The notes under the pieces are model-generated. The model was not told where the DNA came from, did no database searches, and saw only the letters and a list, made by a program, of their open reading frames with translations. The position numbers and the translations under genes were made by a program. A stretch of 64,000 bases of DNA, from positions 1-64,000 of IMG/VR virus record IMGVR_UViG_3300005264_000255; one strand, written 5' to 3'. This DNA comes from a virus. Of this stretch, positions 8,853 through 62,667 are shown in pieces (position 1 is the first letter of the stretch; every line of letters begins with the position of its first letter).

Positions 8853-10142
8853 GCCACTTGATAATGTGTACTCCATTAATCCTACTATTGGTATATGGTA
8901 TATTTAACTTGTTACATAAATCAATATCATCATTTAAGCTACCTACAGAATTACTAGTATAGTTTATATCATCAAGATCTGTTAACATGGTTATAAGTAT
9001 ATGATATGTAGATTTAGGATCTAGTGGTATCGTAGTTTTAATAATGTTATCATCTGTTTTATATAATCCTAAATCTCTAATATATTTAAACTCATAAAGT
9101 TCAATTAGAAATAGTGATTGTCCACATATAAAAAGTTTATTACCTGTATTTTTCTTTAAAGCCTCTATGATTATTAAAGGTAAGTTAACATATTATTATG
9201 TTTACTACCATTATCAGGAACTCTGAATGTGTCATATGTAGGTATAACTGATAACGCATCCGTATAGTTTTTAGTATCGTTAATGATGGTACTATACATA
9301 TTAGAAATATCTAATTCATTCTTAGAGTTCAGAATAGGTTTAACCCTCTCAGTCCTAGGTATCCATATATCATCTAGGCTTCTATTATTAACTAATATAG
9401 GATAGTCTATTCTAACTCCTGTAGGTTTGTCTATACTAAAACTAATCTCAAAGGTTAAGGAATATTCCGTATCCTCTCTACTGATAACAATATCCTTAGG
9501 TTTGGTATTAATATTACATATACGATTAGTCTGTATACCTCTAAATACAGGTCTTCTATATGTATTTTTCTTATTACTCATATAGTCCAATTTAAAGACC
9601 GCTATAGAGTTTAAGTATGATTCTAGACTATCTATTCCCTTTAATCTTTTAATGTTCTCTAGTAGCACTAGAACGTTGTCTGGTAACATATAACTATATG
9701 GTATATCTAGTAATAATGTATAACCACTATGATTATAGTAATTTAATAGACTATTCTTTATATTTAGTAACTTTGCTTTGGATTGTGCTCTATATTTAAA
9801 TTCTATATTAATTAACGTAGATAAGTAAAGAGGACGTATCTTTAGTTTATTATCTCTATCAGCTAGTATTATTCTGTTAATAGGTTTCATAGTACTATTC
9901 TTTAAACTAAGTTCTTCATTCTCACTAACAGTTGTAATAATATCTACAGTACTACCTCCTACTGGATTATCATAAACATTATCAGGTACTGAAACACCCT
10001 CTTCGTTATACATCGATACCATGTTAAGAAACATGGTATCATCCTTAATTATTTTTTCATTAACAAATGCTACTGCAGTATTTACAGCAGGGGATATTGT
10101 TAATTGTTCTATACCGTCCAATGTAGCCAGTTTAGTAACCAT
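8833..10142 (-). CDS. Virion structural protein (phiKZ gp98-like), frameshifted near 9180
   Basis: ORF 9174-10142 (IDYPILVNN, IPTYD) continues in another frame (NLPLIIIEALKK...PLDPKSTYHILITMLTDL...) to TAG at 8833. Confidence 0.6.
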
Positions 10143-11418: not shown

Positions 11419-12849
11419 TTATTTTTTAACGTAGTTTTTAATAGACTCTTTGATCACATGACTAAAACGACATCTAGCAAGTTCAGCAGCTAATAATGTA
11501 TTAGCAGTAATGTTAGCTTTCGCTACAGTAGTGATTGCCTTACGTGAGAAATCATTAATACTATTAACAATCTCACCAACTTTACGTGCATCATCATTAA
11601 GATTTTTATCGAAAAGTTTCTTTTCAATTTTCTTCTCAACAGTAGCTAAGTCTTTTTCAAACTTATCAACAACTTTACTATAGCCTATTAAAGTCTTATC
11701 AATGTTCTTATTAACACCTTTAAGTTTTTCAGCAATAGATTTAGCATCAGTATACTCAAGTGGTTTTACATTTTTACCAAATTCTTTAACATCTTTCTCA
11801 GGTACAGTATAACTACCCTCTTTGATAGATACAGCAGAAAGAATACCTTTAACTAATGTACGTACAGCAGAAAGATCTTTAATATCTGAAGTAAATTTCT
11901 TAGCTGTTTTTAAAGCAGTTAATTGTGTAAGTTTTTCTTCAAGACCATCATCTTTAACACATGCAGCAATGTATTGTATTTTTCTAGGAGTTACAGCAGT
12001 GATACTAACCTTAACAGAGTCATAACCAGAAAGTTCATTTTCTGGTAGTTTATAATCTTTACCTATCTGAATAGTATCAGTAACTGAATCAAGTAACTTT
12101 GTAATGTTTGCAACTGTATCAGCTTTATTAATACTTAAAACTTTTTTACCTGCATCTTTATCACTAATAGCAGTAAGCATCGCAGTAATACTATCGCTAA
12201 TAGCAGAATCAGTCAAATCTTTACCATCAAGCATTTTTAAAGTTACTGGAGTTTCTTTAGCAAGTCTGTCCTGTACAGCTTCACCAAAATCTTTGATAGT
12301 AAGTGTAGTACGACCATCTTCTTTAGCGTCATCCAACAGTTTTATTAATGTTTCATAAGTATCTTCTTTTTTACCAAAAAGACTTTTGATGAAATTAATT
12401 GTTTTTGTAAGAAGCTCTTTAATCCAAGCCCAAATTTTAGCACTAACCTCTTTAGCTTTTTTCCAAGCAGTTTCTAATAAGTTAGAACCCTCAGCACCAT
12501 AAGTAACAGACTCTTTACCAACAGTAAAATCATCAATCATATTAGCTTGTCCAATTAACGACAAAGATGTTACTAATGTTTCTCTACCAACAGCCGTAGC
12601 TAAATCATTATCACCACTAGCGTCACTAACAGCAGTAACCATAGCAGAAGCTTTTTCGATACCAGCAGCAGCCTTCTCAAGCATGTCTAATCTATGTGAT
12701 TCAAGTGTTAACCCTTCTACAGCTGCAACAATACCTGCATACGCATCTAATGAATCTTCCATTACAGCGTTATCATATTTTCTAGACTCTAATCCTAAAT
12801 CAATTCTCATTTTTATCTCCTGGATATGTTTATTTTTTTTATAAGTCAT
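11419..12849 (-). CDS. Inner-head/ejection protein (phiKZ gp93-97 paralog-like)
   Basis: Acidic propeptide with LGLES, VGKES and YGAEG sites, then the amphipathic W..IKELL...IKSLFG segment. Confidence 0.7.
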   Translation of the reverse strand: MTYKKNKHIQEIKMRIDLGLESRKYDNAVMEDSLDAYAGIVAAVEGLTLESHRLDMLEKAAAGIEKASAMVTAVSDASGDNDLATAVGRETLVTSLSLIGQANMIDDFTVGKESVTYGAEGSNLLETAWKKAKEVSAKIWAWIKELLTKTINFIKSLFGKKEDTYETLIKLLDDAKEDGRTTLTIKDFGEAVQDRLAKETPVTLKMLDGKDLTDSAISDSITAMLTAISDKDAGKKVLSINKADTVANITKLLDSVTDTIQIGKDYKLPENELSGYDSVKVSITAVTPRKIQYIAACVKDDGLEEKLTQLTALKTAKKFTSDIKDLSAVRTLVKGILSAVSIKEGSYTVPEKDVKEFGKNVKPLEYTDAKSIAEKLKGVNKNIDKTLIGYSKVVDKFEKDLATVEKKIEKKLFDKNLNDDARKVGEIVNSINDFSRKAITTVAKANITANTLLAAELARCRFSHVIKESIKNYVKK

Positions 12850-21365: not shown

Positions 21366-22826
21366 CTATTTAAGATTTTTAAATTTAGCACCATATAAAT
21401 GCAACTCATTTTCTTCCATTTCTTCCAGATAATCCTCTAAGGTTTTCCCAGTAGAATAATCTACAGCTTCATTACCAAAATACTTATCACTAGCAATCGT
21501 AGTGATGCTCTTCTTCAGGTTATCTATAACCTCTTTTATATTATCTATTTTATCTATAAGTATATCGCTATTACTCGTCTTATCGGATTTACGTAATTCA
21601 CGAATTAATTCCAATCGAAGCTTAACTAATCTTCTACCCATATTATCAAACTTAATAGTAGTATTTGTTCCTGTAGATATTGTAGCTATAAATATACTTA
21701 ATATAGATTTTATTATGTAACCTATAAGATAAGATAGTAACTTAACACTAACGTATATGACGAATACTAGTAAACCTAATGTACTCATTATTAAGTAAGA
21801 CATTATAAACGCCATTATACCAATTATCATCATAATTACTTTTACAAACTGTGAACTAGTATCATCCTCACTATTCTGAATAATCAGTTTATTATACTTC
21901 TGTTTAATCAAGGCTTTAGCAAAAACATCACCTAAACCAAATCTAGCAACAAACATATCTGATAATTGATTAAAATCAATTCTTACAGAGTTAGTATTAC
22001 CATCTATACGGTAAGTCTTTAACATAAGTACCTCTAACTCATTTAGGACAGCCACAGAGCCTTCTTTCTTATGTACACCACCATTTGCCTTACCAACAGC
22101 AATCGATAGGGAATCAATAGCCTCTGTATTCTTATCAAACTTCTCATTTAAAAAAGTATCTATTAACGTAAAGTTAGTCTTTGTAGTAGTATGCATATAT
22201 TCTAGGTAAGTAAATATTTTACCTACTTCAAACAACATTAGACTAACTACCTCTTCAGCTGTCATTGATACTAAAGTAGTTGTTAAAACATCTAAGCTGA
22301 TATTAAACTCTGAACCAGTTAACCCTGATATCCTAGCATTTTTTAAATCTAAAGTAAACCCATCTGATTTTAATGCTTCGGTAATATCAGTAAGAGTCTT
22401 GTGAAGTATATTCTCTTTATAAGAACTCTGTGTAGACCATAAAACACTATCTTCTTTTCTTTTAGGAAACAATTCATCCATACTATTTAAAGCTACGTTA
22501 ACAGTACGATAATTTAGATTAGGCATTATAAGACTTGTTATCCTACTATCCTTCATTTTTTTAGCATCTACGGTAATCTTAATGCCAAATCTTTCACTAA
22601 GTATATTAGACATCTTAGTGAAACTACTATCATAAATAGAATTCTTTATTAACCTACTGTATTTATCATAATTTTCATAAGAAGTATTAGTATCGTTAAG
22701 TGATATATCCTTATACAAGAGAGTTTTATTTGTTGTTTCCTGTAATTCATTTACTAAGGCATTCAGCTCCAATATATATAAATTATTTGTTTGTTTTTGA
22801 ATAGATTCAGTACCATATGTAATCAT
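21366..22826 (-). CDS. Membrane-spanning head protein with degenerate zincin motif (phiKZ gp84-86 family-like)
   Basis: YGTES N-terminal site, FEVGK in place of HExxH, DMFVARFG, hydrophobic segment at about aa 328-385. Confidence 0.65.
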   Translation of the reverse strand: MITYGTESIQKQTNNLYILELNALVNELQETTNKTLLYKDISLNDTNTSYENYDKYSRLIKNSIYDSSFTKMSNILSERFGIKITVDAKKMKDSRITSLIMPNLNYRTVNVALNSMDELFPKRKEDSVLWSTQSSYKENILHKTLTDITEALKSDGFTLDLKNARISGLTGSEFNISLDVLTTTLVSMTAEEVVSLMLFEVGKIFTYLEYMHTTTKTNFTLIDTFLNEKFDKNTEAIDSLSIAVGKANGGVHKKEGSVAVLNELEVLMLKTYRIDGNTNSVRIDFNQLSDMFVARFGLGDVFAKALIKQKYNKLIIQNSEDDTSSQFVKVIMMIIGIMAFIMSYLIMSTLGLLVFVIYVSVKLLSYLIGYIIKSILSIFIATISTGTNTTIKFDNMGRRLVKLRLELIRELRKSDKTSNSDILIDKIDNIKEVIDNLKKSITTIASDKYFGNEAVDYSTGKTLEDYLEEMEENELHLYGAKFKNLK

Positions 22827-26957: not shown

Positions 26958-28642
26958 CTATCTATAACTATTAATGAACTGGTTATTATAATTAGTGTTA
27001 GTGTTATTGAAATTGGTATTTTGTGAACCAAATGACATATTACCTACAGCTGAATTATTGAATGATTGTAAAACAGATTGTAAGTTACTGTTATTAATGT
27101 ATCCAATATTAGGAGCTTAATTTCTAGATTTAACATACTTGATAATTTGTTAAGTACTTCTAGTTTTAATGTATATGGATCTTTACCCGTACATCCCATA
27201 CATATACTAGTTGATGTATTTGAAGTGTTCCAGTCATCAACTAGTTTTGCATCATTTGTATTTTCAGTAATAAATACTACATCTATTTCAGATAAATCTC
27301 TTACATTTTGTTCACCATCTAGGAACTCACCTATAGGAATATAAGAACCTTCATTAGCAAGAACTTTTATGTTTGGTAAATCATAACCAATAAGAGCACT
27401 TGCCTCATTAAGGATAAGGTCATTTGCAGCAGCTTTATGTTTGTTATCTAATAACGCAACAAATGGTTTCATAAATGAATAATCAGCACCATATAGTTCA
27501 ACCTCTAATACAAAGTTTGGATTAAGTCTAAAGTGTGTGTTAATGATGTCCTGTATCATTTGTGGTTGAGCACTTTCATCTCTGAATGAAATCTTTTCAC
27601 CTAGAGCGTTTGCGTCACCTTTGTAGTTAAGTATGTAGTTTAACGGTCCAGCATCATTAGCAATAATAAGTTGTTTCAAAGTTTCTTTGTTAGTAAAGAT
27701 AGCAGAGTTAATTAAACCAAGTAAAACATATGATAAACTTGTACCAGCTGCACTAAACTCATTGAACTTGATGATTGGCTCAGCTATATTTCTATCTTGA
27801 CCAGTGTACTGTAGATTTTCTCTACCTAGAATGAAGTCTAATACACCTGTTTGATTTACCAAGTTAATCTTTTTACTACTTGTGTTAAAACCTCTAATAT
27901 TATTTTTAGACGATAACGATGTTAAAAGATTGAAGTCAGTTCTAACTGGTCTACCAATCTTGTTATAAACTGTACCAGTAGTTAGTGATAACTCTACATT
28001 AACACCTGTTTGGTTAGCAGTACAATAATCCTGTATACCTGGAATAGTAGGGTTTTTAAAGCTACCTACTTCTAAGTAGTATTTAGTAGCAATGACATTG
28101 TGAATATATCTTGCGATACTTATACCTGTTGTAGTCATGTCGATAGAATGTGATAGTACGAAACCATCTAATGAAACATGTGGTACATTTGGATACTTAG
28201 AGTTGACAATTTCATTAATTTTATCATAAGTACCTTTTACGAATACATCACTTGTTACAAGACCAGCATCACTATTTCTAATTTGTTGTTCAGCTACAAT
28301 TTGAGTTACATTTAATGGCTCTCTACCTGTTGCTTCAACGATAGCTAAGAAGCTATAGACAACATTGTTTTCACCTTTGTAAGCATATAACACACCACCG
28401 AACTCGCCATCTAATATTTCTTTTTCTAATTTAAAGATTTTGATTTCAATTTGAAAATCTTTAGCTGCCTCTACAGAAGCTAATGATAAATCGTTCAATG
28501 CTTTATTGCTACCAAAGTTATGAAGTAGTCCTGAACCAATACCAGATAAACCTAGAATACTTATGTTTGTACCATTGTTAGGAGTCTCTTCTTTAATGTC
28601 GTTAGTCTCGCTGCGAGTTTCATTCACGTTTGTTAACTTAGC
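26958..28642 (-). CDS. chmA: Chimallin (phage nuclear shell protein), with lesions at the start and near 27117
   Basis: FLAIVEATGREPL, GRPVRTDF, GVLDF and RDLSEID motifs; divergent from a gp52-like gene. An N/Q-rich C-terminal tail (APNIGYINN...QFINSYR*) lies in another frame at 27116-26958. Confidence 0.75.
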
Positions 28643-58325: not shown

Positions 58326-59372
58326 TTATTGTAAAATACCTAAACCAGTAATATCATCATTCAAATCTATATCATCAAATGGATCATACTCTACCTGTAG
58401 TAATTCATCCATCTTAATTAACTCTGCATTAAGAATTTTAGTTTCTTTTTGTAAGATGTTTTTTCTAAATAATAGATATAATGGATACTGTTTATATGTA
58501 CTTGCTAGCTTTGCTGGAATCACGCTAGTTTTGTTATGAAATAATGGTACCTGAATATCAACAGCTTCCTTATCAGAAATGATAGTTCTACTCATCAGCG
58601 TATCTACATCACCAAGTGTACCAACATTTATACCAATACTATATATACCTGGAGGTACTGTAAATGTAGTATAGTTAGTAGCATTAAAGAAATTAATCAT
58701 ATCCTGATCATCAACACCAGTTAACGTGCCAGATGTAAAAACTGATATAGTTGATAACAGAGTAATTATCTTCTTATTTACATTTTCTTCAGAGGTAACA
58801 GTAGTGTTGTTCTTTACAGTATTATTATAGTATATAACACATAAAGCTTTCTTGTTAGATAAAGCAGCCTTTTGTAAAGTACGTATCGTATGTATGGTAT
58901 TCTTAAGATTTAAATAATTACTACTATCACCGATTGTAGCTACAATAACATTGTAACCTTTACTTAACATAAAACCTGTTAATAAAGATGCTATATTACC
59001 ACCAGAACCACCACTAGCTGAACACATGATTACATAGTAATTATTTTTATTATTTTCAAACTTCTTTTTATCTAAATATCCTTTAAGAAAAGTGAAGATA
59101 TCAGTAGCTAAATCCATATCCTTCTTCTCACCACCAGCACCATCGATTTGACTAGTAGCGATTCTATCTGTTGTGATTTTGGTAAATTTTGGTATAAAGT
59201 CTGTATAGTTATGGATAGTTTTATGTGTTGTATCTAATAACTCAATATCTACTTCACTATATCCTTCACCTAATTCTTTTAAAGTATTATGTGTCGTTAT
59301 ACCTAAATTAATACCTGCACCACCACAACCGATTATAGTTAACTTACCTGTTTTATTATTCATTATTTTCAT
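58326..59372 (-). CDS. phuZ: PhuZ phage tubulin
   Basis: IGCGGAGIN, SGGSGG tubulin signature, VDDQDM T7 loop, acidic C-terminal tail. Confidence 0.88.
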   Translation of the reverse strand: MKIMNNKTGKLTIIGCGGAGINLGITTHNTLKELGEGYSEVDIELLDTTHKTIHNYTDFIPKFTKITTDRIATSQIDGAGGEKKDMDLATDIFTFLKGYLDKKKFENNKNNYYVIMCSASGGSGGNIASLLTGFMLSKGYNVIVATIGDSSNYLNLKNTIHTIRTLQKAALSNKKALCVIYYNNTVKNNTTVTSEENVNKKIITLLSTISVFTSGTLTGVDDQDMINFFNATNYTTFTVPPGIYSIGINVGTLGDVDTLMSRTIISDKEAVDIQVPLFHNKTSVIPAKLASTYKQYPLYLLFRKNILQKETKILNAELIKMDELLQVEYDPFDDIDLNDDITGLGILQ

Positions 59373-59492: not shown

Positions 59493-59564
59493 ATCCTTTG
59501 CTATTTTCATAGTCTTTTTAATATTTAACTATAATGTTTAACCATAGTCTATCTAAATAATATA
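59493..59564 (-). promoter_or_regulatory. Early promoter (TATATTAT) plus hairpin leader (copy 3)
   Basis: Closely similar to 11281-11352 and 31317-31362; upstream of phuZ. Confidence 0.72.
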
Positions 59565-59596: not shown

Positions 59597-61708
59597 TCAC
59601 ATATCCTCTTTTTTATCTAATTTATCATATGGTATATTAATTATATTAGATTCTTTTAATGCTAGTTTCCTAGAATTATATATCGGATCAATAAGTATTA
59701 CATCATTATGCATATTAACTCCCCAGTTACCAGTATGTGTATCTATACTAGGACTTGTATCATAATGATTGTAATTTGTTTTTAAGTAATCAAGAAGTAA
59801 TGTTAATTCTTGATTTACCGACTTAGTGAGTTTCTTTTTACCTAGTTGTAATGTCTTCTCTATCACATCAACACTACCAAGTTCACCATAATCTATGTAA
59901 ACCTTTTGAAGTATTTCAGTATGTACATTAAGTTGTTTGTATTCCTTTTCACTAGGTCGTTTTAAATATTCTATTTCTAATATGTATAATACCTTTTCGT
60001 TATTTATTGGAACAACATCCACTCTATATACCTTAATTCTCGGATTAAATATCTGCCATAGTACCTTATCAGCTTCTAGTGTCAGACTTACAACACTGGT
60101 ATTAGTCATATCTTTTCTATCTTTTAAAACAGGAACTAAAGCAAAACCTGCTATACCTCTTCTCATTTGTAAAAGATGACTACTCATAATAGCTAAGATA
60201 CTATCCTCTTTATTATACATAATCTCCATATCATATGTTTTTAGTATATCGTTTATCGGTTTAATAATATTCTTATTTTTAAATGCGTTAGCAATAAATG
60301 TATTATAAAAACCGGTGTTATTATCAGGTATATTAATATCTGTGTAATACTTATCGACATCCTTGATATAGTTTCTATGTTCTAGTCCCACAGTAAACTT
60401 AGCACTACTTAAGTATATATCATTATTTATAAGACTATCCAATGTAGCACCCAGATTATCACTTATGTTTAAATTACTACCTAGTGTACTATGTAGAAAA
60501 GAACCAAAGAAACTATTCATAAAACTCTTATCTAGAATTTTTATCTCATTATCTATATCTTCTATATCTTTCAGTAATACTTTAATCTCATCTTTATCTA
60601 AATTAGAAGTTCTTAACATAAAAATGATGGATGTTCTTATCTTAACAAAACGTTCTGATAATGTACCATGTTCATCGTTACTATAGTTACGATGTTGTTG
60701 TAATTGTATAAACCTATTAGTATTACCTATTATGGTTCCTATGAAAGAGAATAACACTAAATTAAAAATATACAATGGAGATGCTGTTATAAATAAGATT
60801 AAGGTTATTATTATAGTATTAATTAACCATATAAACATTCCCAGAATAAGAAAGTTTTCATAACTGAGTTCTTTAGTCTTACTGAGTTTGTTTAATGTTT
60901 TAGTTAACTGAGCACCATATCCAAACTTACTTACAAAACTATCGGCTTCATATTCAACATCGGTATCATCAGTTTCTCTACCACTAGTTAATAGTATACC
61001 ATCAAACTTACTTGTTAGTTTACTGTATACCTTAGTAATACCATCTTTACTATTAAGTTGTTTATCTCCTGTTATTACCAACTCATTAACAACTACATCA
61101 GCGTCATTTAGTAGTAAGCCATTTAACAATGAGGATATACTTTTATTAGTATCAGCATACATTTCTAATAGTGTAAATATATGACCTATTTCATGGAGTA
61201 TAATGGCTATGAAATCATCCTTGGTAACATCCATAGACATACTTCTTAAAGAAACTAATAAGGTAAAACTGTAATCATCACTTAATCCGTTAATCTTACA
61301 TTCTTTTAAATCTATGTCTATTCTATTCTTCTCTATATACTTTTCAAATTTAACTAACTGTTTACTAGCTTTGTTAACATCTTTAGATAAATCGTTCATA
61401 CTAAAATTACTTTTTATCTGCTTAGTATTAAAAATAGGGAATACTGCGAATGTATTGGAATTCCTTAGATTAATGTTTAGATTAAAACGTTTCTTTAACA
61501 TCTTATTAAACATTTCATTTATGTTTTTTAAATCATTAGTAAGCTCTTTTTTATCAATACTTTTCTTTCGATAGTATAATGTACCTACCTTTCTAAGTTT
61601 ATCGTATACTATCGATATATCGTTGATAACCTCATCGTTTAATTGTGCCTGTATAATAGACTCTAAACCTACTTTAATCATATCTGTTCCTTTGTCTTTA
61701 GTAATCAA
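59597..61708 (-). CDS. Inner-head HEXXH membrane protein fused to a C-terminal protein-kinase-like domain
   Basis: VGLES N-terminal site; ILHEIGH...EYEAD zincin; hydrophobic hairpin; internal VGLE site; C-domain DTHTGN...LIDP. Likely start ATG 61681 or nearby behind AAGGA. Confidence 0.7.
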   Translation of the reverse strand: MITKDKGTDMIKVGLESIIQAQLNDEVINDISIVYDKLRKVGTLYYRKKSIDKKELTNDLKNINEMFNKMLKKRFNLNINLRNSNTFAVFPIFNTKQIKSNFSMNDLSKDVNKASKQLVKFEKYIEKNRIDIDLKECKINGLSDDYSFTLLVSLRSMSMDVTKDDFIAIILHEIGHIFTLLEMYADTNKSISSLLNGLLLNDADVVVNELVITGDKQLNSKDGITKVYSKLTSKFDGILLTSGRETDDTDVEYEADSFVSKFGYGAQLTKTLNKLSKTKELSYENFLILGMFIWLINTIIITLILFITASPLYIFNLVLFSFIGTIIGNTNRFIQLQQHRNYSNDEHGTLSERFVKIRTSIIFMLRTSNLDKDEIKVLLKDIEDIDNEIKILDKSFMNSFFGSFLHSTLGSNLNISDNLGATLDSLINNDIYLSSAKFTVGLEHRNYIKDVDKYYTDINIPDNNTGFYNTFIANAFKNKNIIKPINDILKTYDMEIMYNKEDSILAIMSSHLLQMRRGIAGFALVPVLKDRKDMTNTSVVSLTLEADKVLWQIFNPRIKVYRVDVVPINNEKVLYILEIEYLKRPSEKEYKQLNVHTEILQKVYIDYGELGSVDVIEKTLQLGKKKLTKSVNQELTLLLDYLKTNYNHYDTSPSIDTHTGNWGVNMHNDVILIDPIYNSRKLALKESNIINIPYDKLDKKEDM

Positions 61709-61842: not shown

Positions 61843-62667
61843 ATGAAAAAACCTTTAATTAAATGGATCAATGGTAAGCAACAGTTACTAGGTGAATTAA
61901 GAAAACTAATGCCAGAGAAGTATAATCATTACTACGAACCATTCTTCGGTAGTGGTGCGTTGTTCTTTGATGTTAAACCTAAAGATGCAACCATTGGTGA
62001 CCGTAACAAGGAGTTAATTAATTTCTATACTGTAGTTAGAGATGCTCCTAAAGAACTCTTAGCAAATGTATTAACACATAGTAATACTTCCGAATACTAT
62101 TATACTATACGTAACCTTGATAGGAATACTGTATTCTTTAACAAACTATCTGACATTGTAAAGGCTGGTAGATTTATATACTTAAACAAATCCTGTTTTA
62201 ATGGACTTTATCGACTTAACAAGTCTGGTCATTTTAGTGTACCTTTCGCTAAGTACGATAAACCGATATACTGTATTCCTGAGGATGTTTTAGAAAGTAG
62301 TAAATTACTACAGAATACTAAAATCTATTCTGGTAATTTTGATAAAATTAAAAAGGATATTAAGAAAGGAGATCTTATCTATCTTGACCCACCATATCAT
62401 CCTTTATCTAAAACAGTAAGACCTATAAATCCTGCGGATAATAAGTTTAATGAAAAGAACTATAACGATGTAAAGAAATTATGTGATTACATAGATAGTA
62501 TTGGTGGATACTTTATGGTATCTACTACGTATTGTAAGTTTATTACTGATTTATTTAAATCTGATAAATATCATTTACATAAGGTTACGAATGTTTGTGG
62601 TGCTAAAATATCCTTAGTAGGTAGACAAACAGTACAAGAGGTAATCATTACAAACTACACTAACTAG
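61843..62667 (+). CDS. dam: Dam-family (D12 class) DNA adenine methyltransferase
   Basis: EPFFGSGA, FNGLYR.N and YLDPPY motifs. Confidence 0.85.
   Translation: MKKPLIKWINGKQQLLGELRKLMPEKYNHYYEPFFGSGALFFDVKPKDATIGDRNKELINFYTVVRDAPKELLANVLTHSNTSEYYYTIRNLDRNTVFFNKLSDIVKAGRFIYLNKSCFNGLYRLNKSGHFSVPFAKYDKPIYCIPEDVLESSKLLQNTKIYSGNFDKIKKDIKKGDLIYLDPPYHPLSKTVRPINPADNKFNEKNYNDVKKLCDYIDSIGGYFMVSTTYCKFITDLFKSDKYHLHKVTNVCGAKISLVGRQTVQEVIITNYTN

Follow-up and report, generated by a model that had tools for sequence, protein, structure and literature searches.

The DNA stretch analysed here, in the following called the window, comprises positions 1 to 64,000 of the IMG/VR virus record IMGVR_UViG_3300005264_000255, a 78.5 kb contig of about 29% completeness that originates from a marine sediment metagenome. 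On its minus strand lies a gene whose product, P0001, has a three-part architecture: a short leader, a carrier module belonging to a family of phage head proteins and a C-terminal kinase-like domain (Table 1). Judged by its gene content, the window derives from a phage of the nucleus-forming type. Besides a chimallin-like shell protein and PhuZ it also holds a phiKZ-type DNA polymerase and a tail sheath.

The longest open reading frame (ORF) at this position (59597-61708, minus strand) begins with TTG and comprises 703 amino acids (aa). Nine codons inside this ORF, the ATG at 61681 is preceded at a distance of 7 nucleotides (nt) by AAAGGAA, which makes a good ribosome-binding site. The N-termini of the relatives described below, MIKPG[IL]E (MIKPGIET..., MIKPGLES...), resemble that of the shorter form. 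Because of this upstream element and the similar beginning of the relatives we consider the ATG to be most likely the true start. A preliminary description of this DNA had given the gene as a 703-aa ORF; frame and coordinates were right, only the start has probably to be moved to the ATG, which leaves 694 aa. Residue numbers in this text refer to the 694-aa form, and numbers within the kinase domain are given separately (K108 = Lys539). The preliminary description had also placed V-G-L-E at the N-terminus (aa 4-7) and inside the protein, followed by D-T-H-T-G-N and an L-I-D-P behind it (aa 663-666), and all of these positions were confirmed.

Table 1. Features of the fusion gene, its paralog and related genes. 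Coordinates are those of the window unless marked otherwise.
Feature	Coordinates	Strand	Remarks
Fusion gene P0001	59597..61681	(-)	694 aa, coordinates with stop codon; based on ORF list, ribosome-binding site and relatives' N-termini
Leader MIKVGLE, 7 residues, putative propeptide	61661..61681	(-)	cut expected before Ser8; aligns with SPN3US gp45 site
Carrier module, aa 8-430	60392..61660	(-)	phrog_2767 (phiKZ gp84 / SPN3US gp45 family), M48-like
HEIGH, aa 163-167, zinc-binding HExxH	61181..61195	(-)	kept in every active-type module
EYEAD, aa 243-247, ExxAD third-ligand motif of M48 peptidases	60941..60955	(-)	conserved; aligns with HtpX EFHAD
Hydrophobic helical hairpin, aa 274-327	60701..60862	(-)	model helices 274-296 and 302-327
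Junction V-G-L-E, aa 431-434, putative internal prohead-protease site	60380..60391	(-)	conserved [SAG]-x-E joint
T7-kinase-like domain, aa 435-694	59600..60379	(-)	AF2 model, fold searches, hhalign
Lys539 (domain K108), candidate displaced ATP-binding lysine	60065..60067	(-)	near-invariant in 19 sequences
Catalytic loop D-T-H-T-G-N, aa 647-652	59726..59743	(-)	D and N invariant; aligned with T7 gp0.7
D-P-I, aa 665-667, counterpart of T7 kinase DPV	59681..59689	(-)	D invariant, P near-invariant
Paralog, 486 aa, no kinase	21366..22826	(-)	FEVGK for HExxH, NQLSD for ExxAD; next to DNA polymerase
Chimallin-like shell protein	27044-28627		nucleus-forming phage marker
PhuZ	58326-59372		directly downstream of fusion gene
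gp175-type prohead protease homologue (L007)	77685-78437 of the contig, outside the window	(-)	35-38% identity to gp175, E 3.4e-35

The N-terminal part of P0001 matches the profile phrog_2767 with an E-value (E) of 1.1e-31 over profile positions 39-439 of 442. The paralog in the window can be aligned to aa 107-429 of P0001 (24% identity, E 8e-12). This alignment terminates at NNDIYLSSAKF in P0001 and at ENELHLYGAKF in the paralog, and the phrog_2767 matches of the two proteins extend to profile position 439-441 of 442. The similarity thus halts precisely at the end of the family and of the paralog. A parallel of about 440 aa that stops at the end of the paralog had already been noted in the preliminary description, and the pairwise alignment and the profile agree on it. 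The phrog_2767 profile matches a single gene of phiKZ, gp84 (E 1e-121), which is annotated as "structural head protein", and likewise a single gene of SPN3US, gp45 (E 4e-169). The members from both phages have been found in heads by mass spectrometry (PMC5694885), which bears out the earlier assignment of this part of P0001 to a head-protein family. In SPN3US the prohead protease gp245 processes eight head proteins; gp45 is one of these and the only one among them with a short N-terminal propeptide, comprising 20 residues (PMC5694885). By analogy with these homologues P0001 would be located in the head as well. A literature search for phiKZ gp84 under that name yielded nothing useful. Both proteins are homologous to aa 1-430 of P0001 and have in common with it the HExxH and ExxAD motifs, the hydrophobic hairpin and the family end point ...NNDL-x(5)-AK[FL]. 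They stop at this point (413 and 450 aa), whereas P0001 runs on into the kinase-like domain; also unlike them, some relatives of P0001 carry two carrier modules in tandem followed by the kinase.

For the domain behind this end point an AlphaFold2 (AF2) model was calculated from the family alignment. It shows a two-lobed kinase fold with a predicted local distance difference test score (pLDDT) of 87.5 and a predicted template modelling score of 0.86. When this model was compared to the PDB with Foldseek, only kinases were found, 46 of 46 among the matches listed (APH(2''), CcrZ, PknB, APH(9), FN3K, LicA). Nearly all of the best 50 matches in a VIA-align comparison to 48,161 chains were kinases as well (Z 4.3-5.6). 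Among the predicted viral structures of BFVD there were 34 matches with E<=1e-3, and T7-like phage protein kinases were on top (best E 2.2e-6, range 2e-6 to 3e-5, probability 1.0, template modelling (TM) score about 0.4). In the ESM Atlas, one cluster among the look-alikes of the domain has Phage_T7_kinase on 42% of its members.

Profile comparison points to the same family. Using hhalign, the domain profile was aligned to relatives of T7 gp0.7 over 141 columns with a score of 54.3 (probability 92%, E 5e-7); as controls, 20 column shuffles scored 9.6-18.5, the reversed alignment 12.8 and HtpX 10.0. The alignment pairs D647-x-H-x-G-N652 of P0001 with F-D195-M-H-S-G-N200 of T7 gp0.7, and L-I-D665-P-I with I-T-D213-P-V (D213-P214-V215). 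In the N-lobe, including the lysine position of the T7 motif "VIKV", the alignment is unreliable and we drew no conclusion from it. A D-P-V sequence in place of DFG is a hallmark of the T7 kinase homologues (PMC13645617, Nature 2026). Across the 19 aligned sequences of the family G78 (G509), N115, Y135, D216 (D647), N221 (N652) and D234 (D665) are invariant, and T103, K108 (K539), P235 and N248 are near-invariant. A Pfam search with the C-terminal domain and its relatives returned no kinase family, using a library without PF27024 that left T7 gp0.7 itself unmatched. A sequence search of the PDB gave matches at chance level only (Protein O-mannose kinase, E 1.2). The description of the C-terminal 260 aa as protein-kinase-like and of the T7 gp0.7 type is thus upheld by the model, the fold searches and the profile comparison with its shuffle controls. 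By sequence, the domain is a distant relative of the T7 gp0.7 kinase lineage, not a member of it as defined by the PF27024 model.

We then considered the joints between the three parts. P0001 holds only three G-x-E motifs, two of which are located at the N-terminal and the junction position. The background in the family is low, with 76 G-x-E in 16,158 residues (0.0047 per position). Of the 18 fused proteins listed, 15 have the motif among their first 22 residues. At the joint between module and kinase 15 of 17 fused proteins have G-x-E, and if A-x-E is counted too, [SAG]-x-E is found in 16 of 17. Such a recurrence of the fusion and of its joint motif goes beyond coincidence. Proteins with two modules carry a further G-x-E at the joint between the modules, 12-14 residues after I-N-N-D-L. 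The residues following the joint Glu are variable across the family. Both models show low pLDDT on either side of the junction, a stretch predicted to form a flexible linker, and residues 1-6 have a pLDDT <50 in the structure model. In the family alignment the column of the mapped SPN3US gp45 site, A-V-A-S-E(20)/S-I-G-F (slashes denote the cut), coincides with G-L-E(7)/S of P0001 and with G-x-E/[ST] of most relatives.

The preliminary description had regarded these tetrapeptides as S/A/G-x-E sites of a prohead protease. This is sustained by the register of the N-terminal G-x-E with the mapped gp45 site and by a gp175-type protease encoded on the contig. In the C-terminal autocleavage region, the sequence S-V-G-I-E/N of the contig protease aligns with S-P-A-L-E/N of phiKZ gp175. 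For the SPN3US protease autocleavage at E203 has been demonstrated, and the phiKZ protease has been reported to cut itself as well (PMC5694885). The presence of V-G-I-E in the aligned autocleavage region suggests that the protease of this phage probably recognises V-G-[IL]-E, the tetrapeptide found at both sites of P0001. A cut after Glu7 would be expected from the homologues. For a cut after Glu434, for the domain staying in the head and being ejected, and for its activity and substrates, we go beyond what the homologues offer, and these steps are inferred only.

Other ORFs of the contig were also inspected for such motifs. G-[LI]-E near the N-terminus was seen in 4 ORFs compared to 1.4 expected, a small enrichment. 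A 476-aa ORF without PHROG match (11419-12849, minus strand) contains D-L-G-L-E-S at residues 17-22 and further G-x-E at 63, 88, 111 and 118. This series resembles the multiply cut propeptides of phiKZ and SPN3US ejection proteins. Two more minus-strand ORFs, 9174-10142 (L-D-G-I-E-Q) and 72387-73709 of the contig (G-L-G-L-E-L), have G-[LI]-E among their 20 N-terminal residues and are possible substrates of the protease.

Relatives were collected with HMMER, which was run exhaustively against 1.84 billion representatives. Besides P0001, 18 proteins were found: 16 are fused and two are stand-alone kinase domains (253 and 262 aa). The fused proteins carry either one phrog_2767 module (640-730 aa) or two (1150-1360 aa) in front of the kinase. 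The kinase sequences of the family are only 20-39% identical, and in four distant members (P0018-P0021) the His of D-x-H-x-x-N is missing. Searches of the phage collection on nucleotide and protein level with the locus, the whole protein or the C-terminal domain gave no match, and there is no fused form in records of cultured phages. Scanning IMG/VR with two of the relatives (P0002 and P0004) did not reveal any relative. Two relatives, P0013 with 1236 aa and P0015 with 1358 aa, share an extra domain of ~240 aa behind the kinase, which starts with ...Y-H-[IM]-G-[AK]-K-G-Y and has no obvious G-x-E joint before it. P0149, filed at NCBI under Candidatus Woesearchaeota archaeon (DRJ25_02310, partial, 1017 aa), is a double-module member of this phage head family; the record probably represents a phage contig that ended up in the bin of an archaeal genome.

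The preliminary description had characterized the N-terminal part as an inner-head carrier. The head-protein family stands, as shown above. The module is, however, not a passive carrier: alignment with HtpX points to an M48-like zinc metalloprotease module equipped with a hydrophobic hairpin. Apart from the HExxH and ExxAD motifs (HEIGH and EYEAD in P0001) there is a third conserved motif, H-G-x-L-x-x-R (aa 338-344), and all three are kept throughout the modules of the family, the paralog of the window being the only exception. A hhalign comparison of the carrier profile to E. coli HtpX scored 43.3, while 20 shuffles and the reversed sequence reached at most 18.6, and the alignment is in register at HExxH, at ExxAD and at the H-P-P-L-D-K-R motif of HtpX. 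As in the M48 peptidases HtpX and Ste24, ExxAD follows HExxH after ~80 residues, and HExxH, ExxAD and H-x-x-L-x-x-R align with E. coli HtpX. Unlike in M48 the hairpin of P0001 follows ExxAD and is not placed between the motifs. Peptidase_M48 (PF01435) is matched by 7 of the 19 members (best E 1.1e-5). Two matches inspected singly reached 15.6-16.5 bits, which is under the cut-off of 20.3, and four relatives carry a precomputed PF01435.25 annotation.

Several results weaken the M48 assignment or do not bear on it. P0001 itself has no Pfam match at E<=1. The carrier model has a pLDDT of 71.9, and its Foldseek search was uninformative (best E 0.26, with Ste24 and ZMPSTE24 among the noise). The VIA fold list of this model is filled by helical hairpins and equally uninformative. 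Searching PDB sequences with a profile gave matches at chance level only (TatC and Ste24, E 0.05-3.5). Since P0001 lacks a Pfam match and the fold searches were uninformative, we regard membership in M48 as likely but not settled.

The paralog adjoins the DNA polymerase gene in the same way as gp84 does in phiKZ, and the fusion gene is located between a RecJ-like gene and PhuZ. Whereas phiKZ gp84 and SPN3US gp45 keep HExxH and ExxAD, their positional counterpart in the window has lost both. As the copy at the gp84 position lacks the motifs and the kinase-bearing copy retains them, the copy at the ancestral position would be inactive and the relocated one active. The order RecJ, fusion gene, PhuZ and phrog_3181 is kept in the sole locus of a relative that was compared (L011), which encodes a double-module version of the protein. 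In the window, a DNA methyltransferase gene (phrog_56, 61843-62667, plus strand) lies between the RecJ-like gene and the fusion gene, which are adjacent in L011. A repeat is located at 59493-59564, between the end of the fusion gene and PhuZ. Its GACTATG motif was not found by eye in the 160 nt 5' of the fusion gene, which would fit non-early expression.

We slightly favour the view that P0001 is a head-loaded three-part precursor from which a kinase of the T7 lineage is freed and ejected together with the DNA. The precursor would enter the prohead via its gp84-like module, and the gp175-type prohead protease (MEROPS S80) would cut after Glu7 and Glu434. The released soluble kinase would remain in the capsid and then be ejected along with the DNA. 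In the host cell it would phosphorylate proteins of defence or takeover ahead of any phage gene expression. A number of observations weigh against this view. The Foldseek scores in the PDB are weak (best E 7.6e-4, TM 0.25-0.30), and VIA Z-values below 6 are unconvincing alone. Precomputed annotations place PF27024.1 on T7 kinases and never on the relatives (P0004, P0007, P0011 and others), and the domain is therefore too diverged for the curated Pfam model. All fused relatives are metagenomic or uncultured and known from sequence alone. The G-x-E joints could be conserved for structural reasons. Moreover, strand beta3 (V-[IV]-x-[IL]-T) is devoid of Lys throughout the family, and the hydrophobic hairpin and the intrinsic metalloprotease permit other fates of the protein.

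An active-type carrier with a hairpin leads to two such alternatives. In one of them the junction stays uncut and only the leader is removed, so that after ejection the kinase would remain on the hairpin-bearing M48-like module and be anchored in a membrane, for instance the inner membrane or that of the early infection vesicle. The hairpin is indeed conserved, and the cuts identified for SPN3US gp245, except for those in the protease itself, all remove N-terminal propeptides (PMC10052503). Yet the tetrapeptide at the joint is of the same type as the N-terminal site and is kept at 16 of 17 joints, with variable residues behind the Glu. In addition, the motif recurs at each module boundary of the double-module relatives, and the linker is predicted to be disordered. 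We regard an uncut junction as unlikely. The other alternative holds that the M48-like module processes the protein itself instead of the prohead protease, as has been proposed for some polyvalent phage proteins. HExxH, ExxAD and HG-x-L-x-x-R are conserved in every kinase-bearing module, and PF01435 is annotated on four relatives. On the other hand, the unfused proteins phiKZ gp84 and SPN3US gp45 keep the active-site motifs without having a cargo to free. Cutting after Glu in [SAG]-x-E is furthermore the specificity of S80 prohead proteases, and the aligned gp45 site has been attributed to gp245 (PMC5694885). This makes self-processing very unlikely in our opinion.

The remaining alternatives concern the nature of the C-terminal domain and of the gene itself. 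The domain could be a pseudokinase with a structural or assembly role in the head, or a kinase acting on phage proteins during assembly and not directed at the host. The preliminary description had cautioned that the beta3 Lys might be missing, and rightly so. Given its absence throughout the family, catalysis would depend on a displaced lysine. K539, located five residues after the beta3 strand in the conserved pattern T-x-[DE]-x-x-K, is a candidate. The loss of the D-x-H-x-x-N His in P0018-P0021 and the modest likeness to solved kinases also speak for this possibility. However, the catalytic Asp and Asn, the metal-binding Asp of D-P and the Gly of the nucleotide loop are invariant and K539 is near-invariant at 20-39% identity. 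Such conservation is typical of active enzymes, and we find a pseudokinase or an assembly role quite unlikely. A kinase of small molecules, of the aminoglycoside, choline or sugar kinase type, is suggested by APH(2''), APH(9), FN3K and LicA among the top Foldseek matches in the PDB. Here we consider the evidence to the contrary as decisive enough to reject this highly improbable assignment: the profile likeness is specific to the T7 protein-kinase family and includes the D-P motif, the best BFVD matches are T7-like protein kinases, and the ESM look-alikes contain the cluster with 42% Phage_T7_kinase. An assembly chimera or read-through of two genes, finally, is practically negligible. A chimeric junction was the case named in the preliminary description as overturning its proposal. 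The only result that might be taken in its favour is that none of the contigs from a second sample bridges the junction; this is uninformative, as a gap there proves nothing. A chimera is excluded because the fusion recurs: the same architecture is found in about 20 distinct proteins from independent metagenomes and in the syntenic relative. The frame is open without a stop, and the entire gene lies on one Logan contig, which stems from another assembly of the source run.

Comparing the favoured head-loaded precursor to known systems, the kinase-like domain and T7 gp0.7 (T7K, PF27024) are alike in the two-lobed fold, the D-x-H-x-G-N loop and D-P-[V/I] replacing DFG. The T7K lineage is restricted to phages, and diverged homologues without the shut-off domain are known from the jumbo phages Munch and G17 (PMC13645617). 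T7K is produced after infection as a free protein of the early phase, whereas the P0001 kinase forms the C-terminus of a head-family protein behind a protease motif. Also in contrast to T7K, the P0001 domain has neither a shut-off nor a DNA-binding domain, and it lacks the beta3 Lys. As far as we know, Munch and G17 are not nucleus-forming. With regard to delivery, T4 Alt and the internal proteins of T4 carry a capsid-targeting leader, are cut after Glu by gp21 and are injected. The virion RNA polymerase of phiKZ-like phages is, like T4 Alt, a head-loaded, protease-trimmed and injected enzyme. The logic proposed for P0001 would be similar to that of T4 Alt, an enzyme loaded into the prohead, trimmed after Glu by the prohead protease and delivered with the DNA at time zero in order to modify proteins of the host. 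T4 Alt is, however, an ADP-ribosyltransferase with a leader of 10-20 residues, while P0001 is kinase-like, has a whole carrier domain and would depend on a protease of the S80 (gp175) type.

A further parallel is found in the polyvalent proteins of phages and conjugative elements, which Iyer et al. reportedly described in 2017. Like the precursor proposed for P0001 they combine a number of enzyme domains, in many cases with a zincin peptidase among them, in one delivered chain with processing in between. P0001 differs from them in having two kinds of domains in a fixed order, carrier relatives that were experimentally found in the head and one site anchored to a mapped site. Virion and tegument kinases exist in poxviruses and herpesviruses. 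We know of no virion-delivered protein kinase in a bacteriophage, and P0001 would be the first if the proposal is true. Head cargo of the T4 Alt type, anti-defence kinases of the T7 type and multi-enzyme polyvalent phage proteins are thus already known. What is new is that a kinase of the T7 lineage occurs in a nucleus-forming phage, that it is fused to a carrier whose relatives were located in the head by experiment and that one of its two sites is anchored to a mapped cleavage.

Time zero, before the shell is present, is regarded as the phase in which nucleus-forming phages are most vulnerable. The T7 kinase disarms many bacterial defences through mass phosphorylation (PMC13645617). It requires transcription and translation first, whereas a relative delivered by the capsid would, if our proposal is true, act at time zero. 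As a tentative and somewhat doubtful extension, nucleus-forming giant phages of marine sediments may pre-load a T7K-like and possibly hyper-promiscuous kinase that would phosphorylate host defences before transcription and before shell formation. For phiKZ gp84 and SPN3US gp45, which are conserved and had been unexplained, the analysis now assigns a likely nature as M48-like metalloproteases. The gp84-type protein would in addition serve as a platform for cargo fused behind a protease site, which may provide a simple rule for finding ejected effectors.

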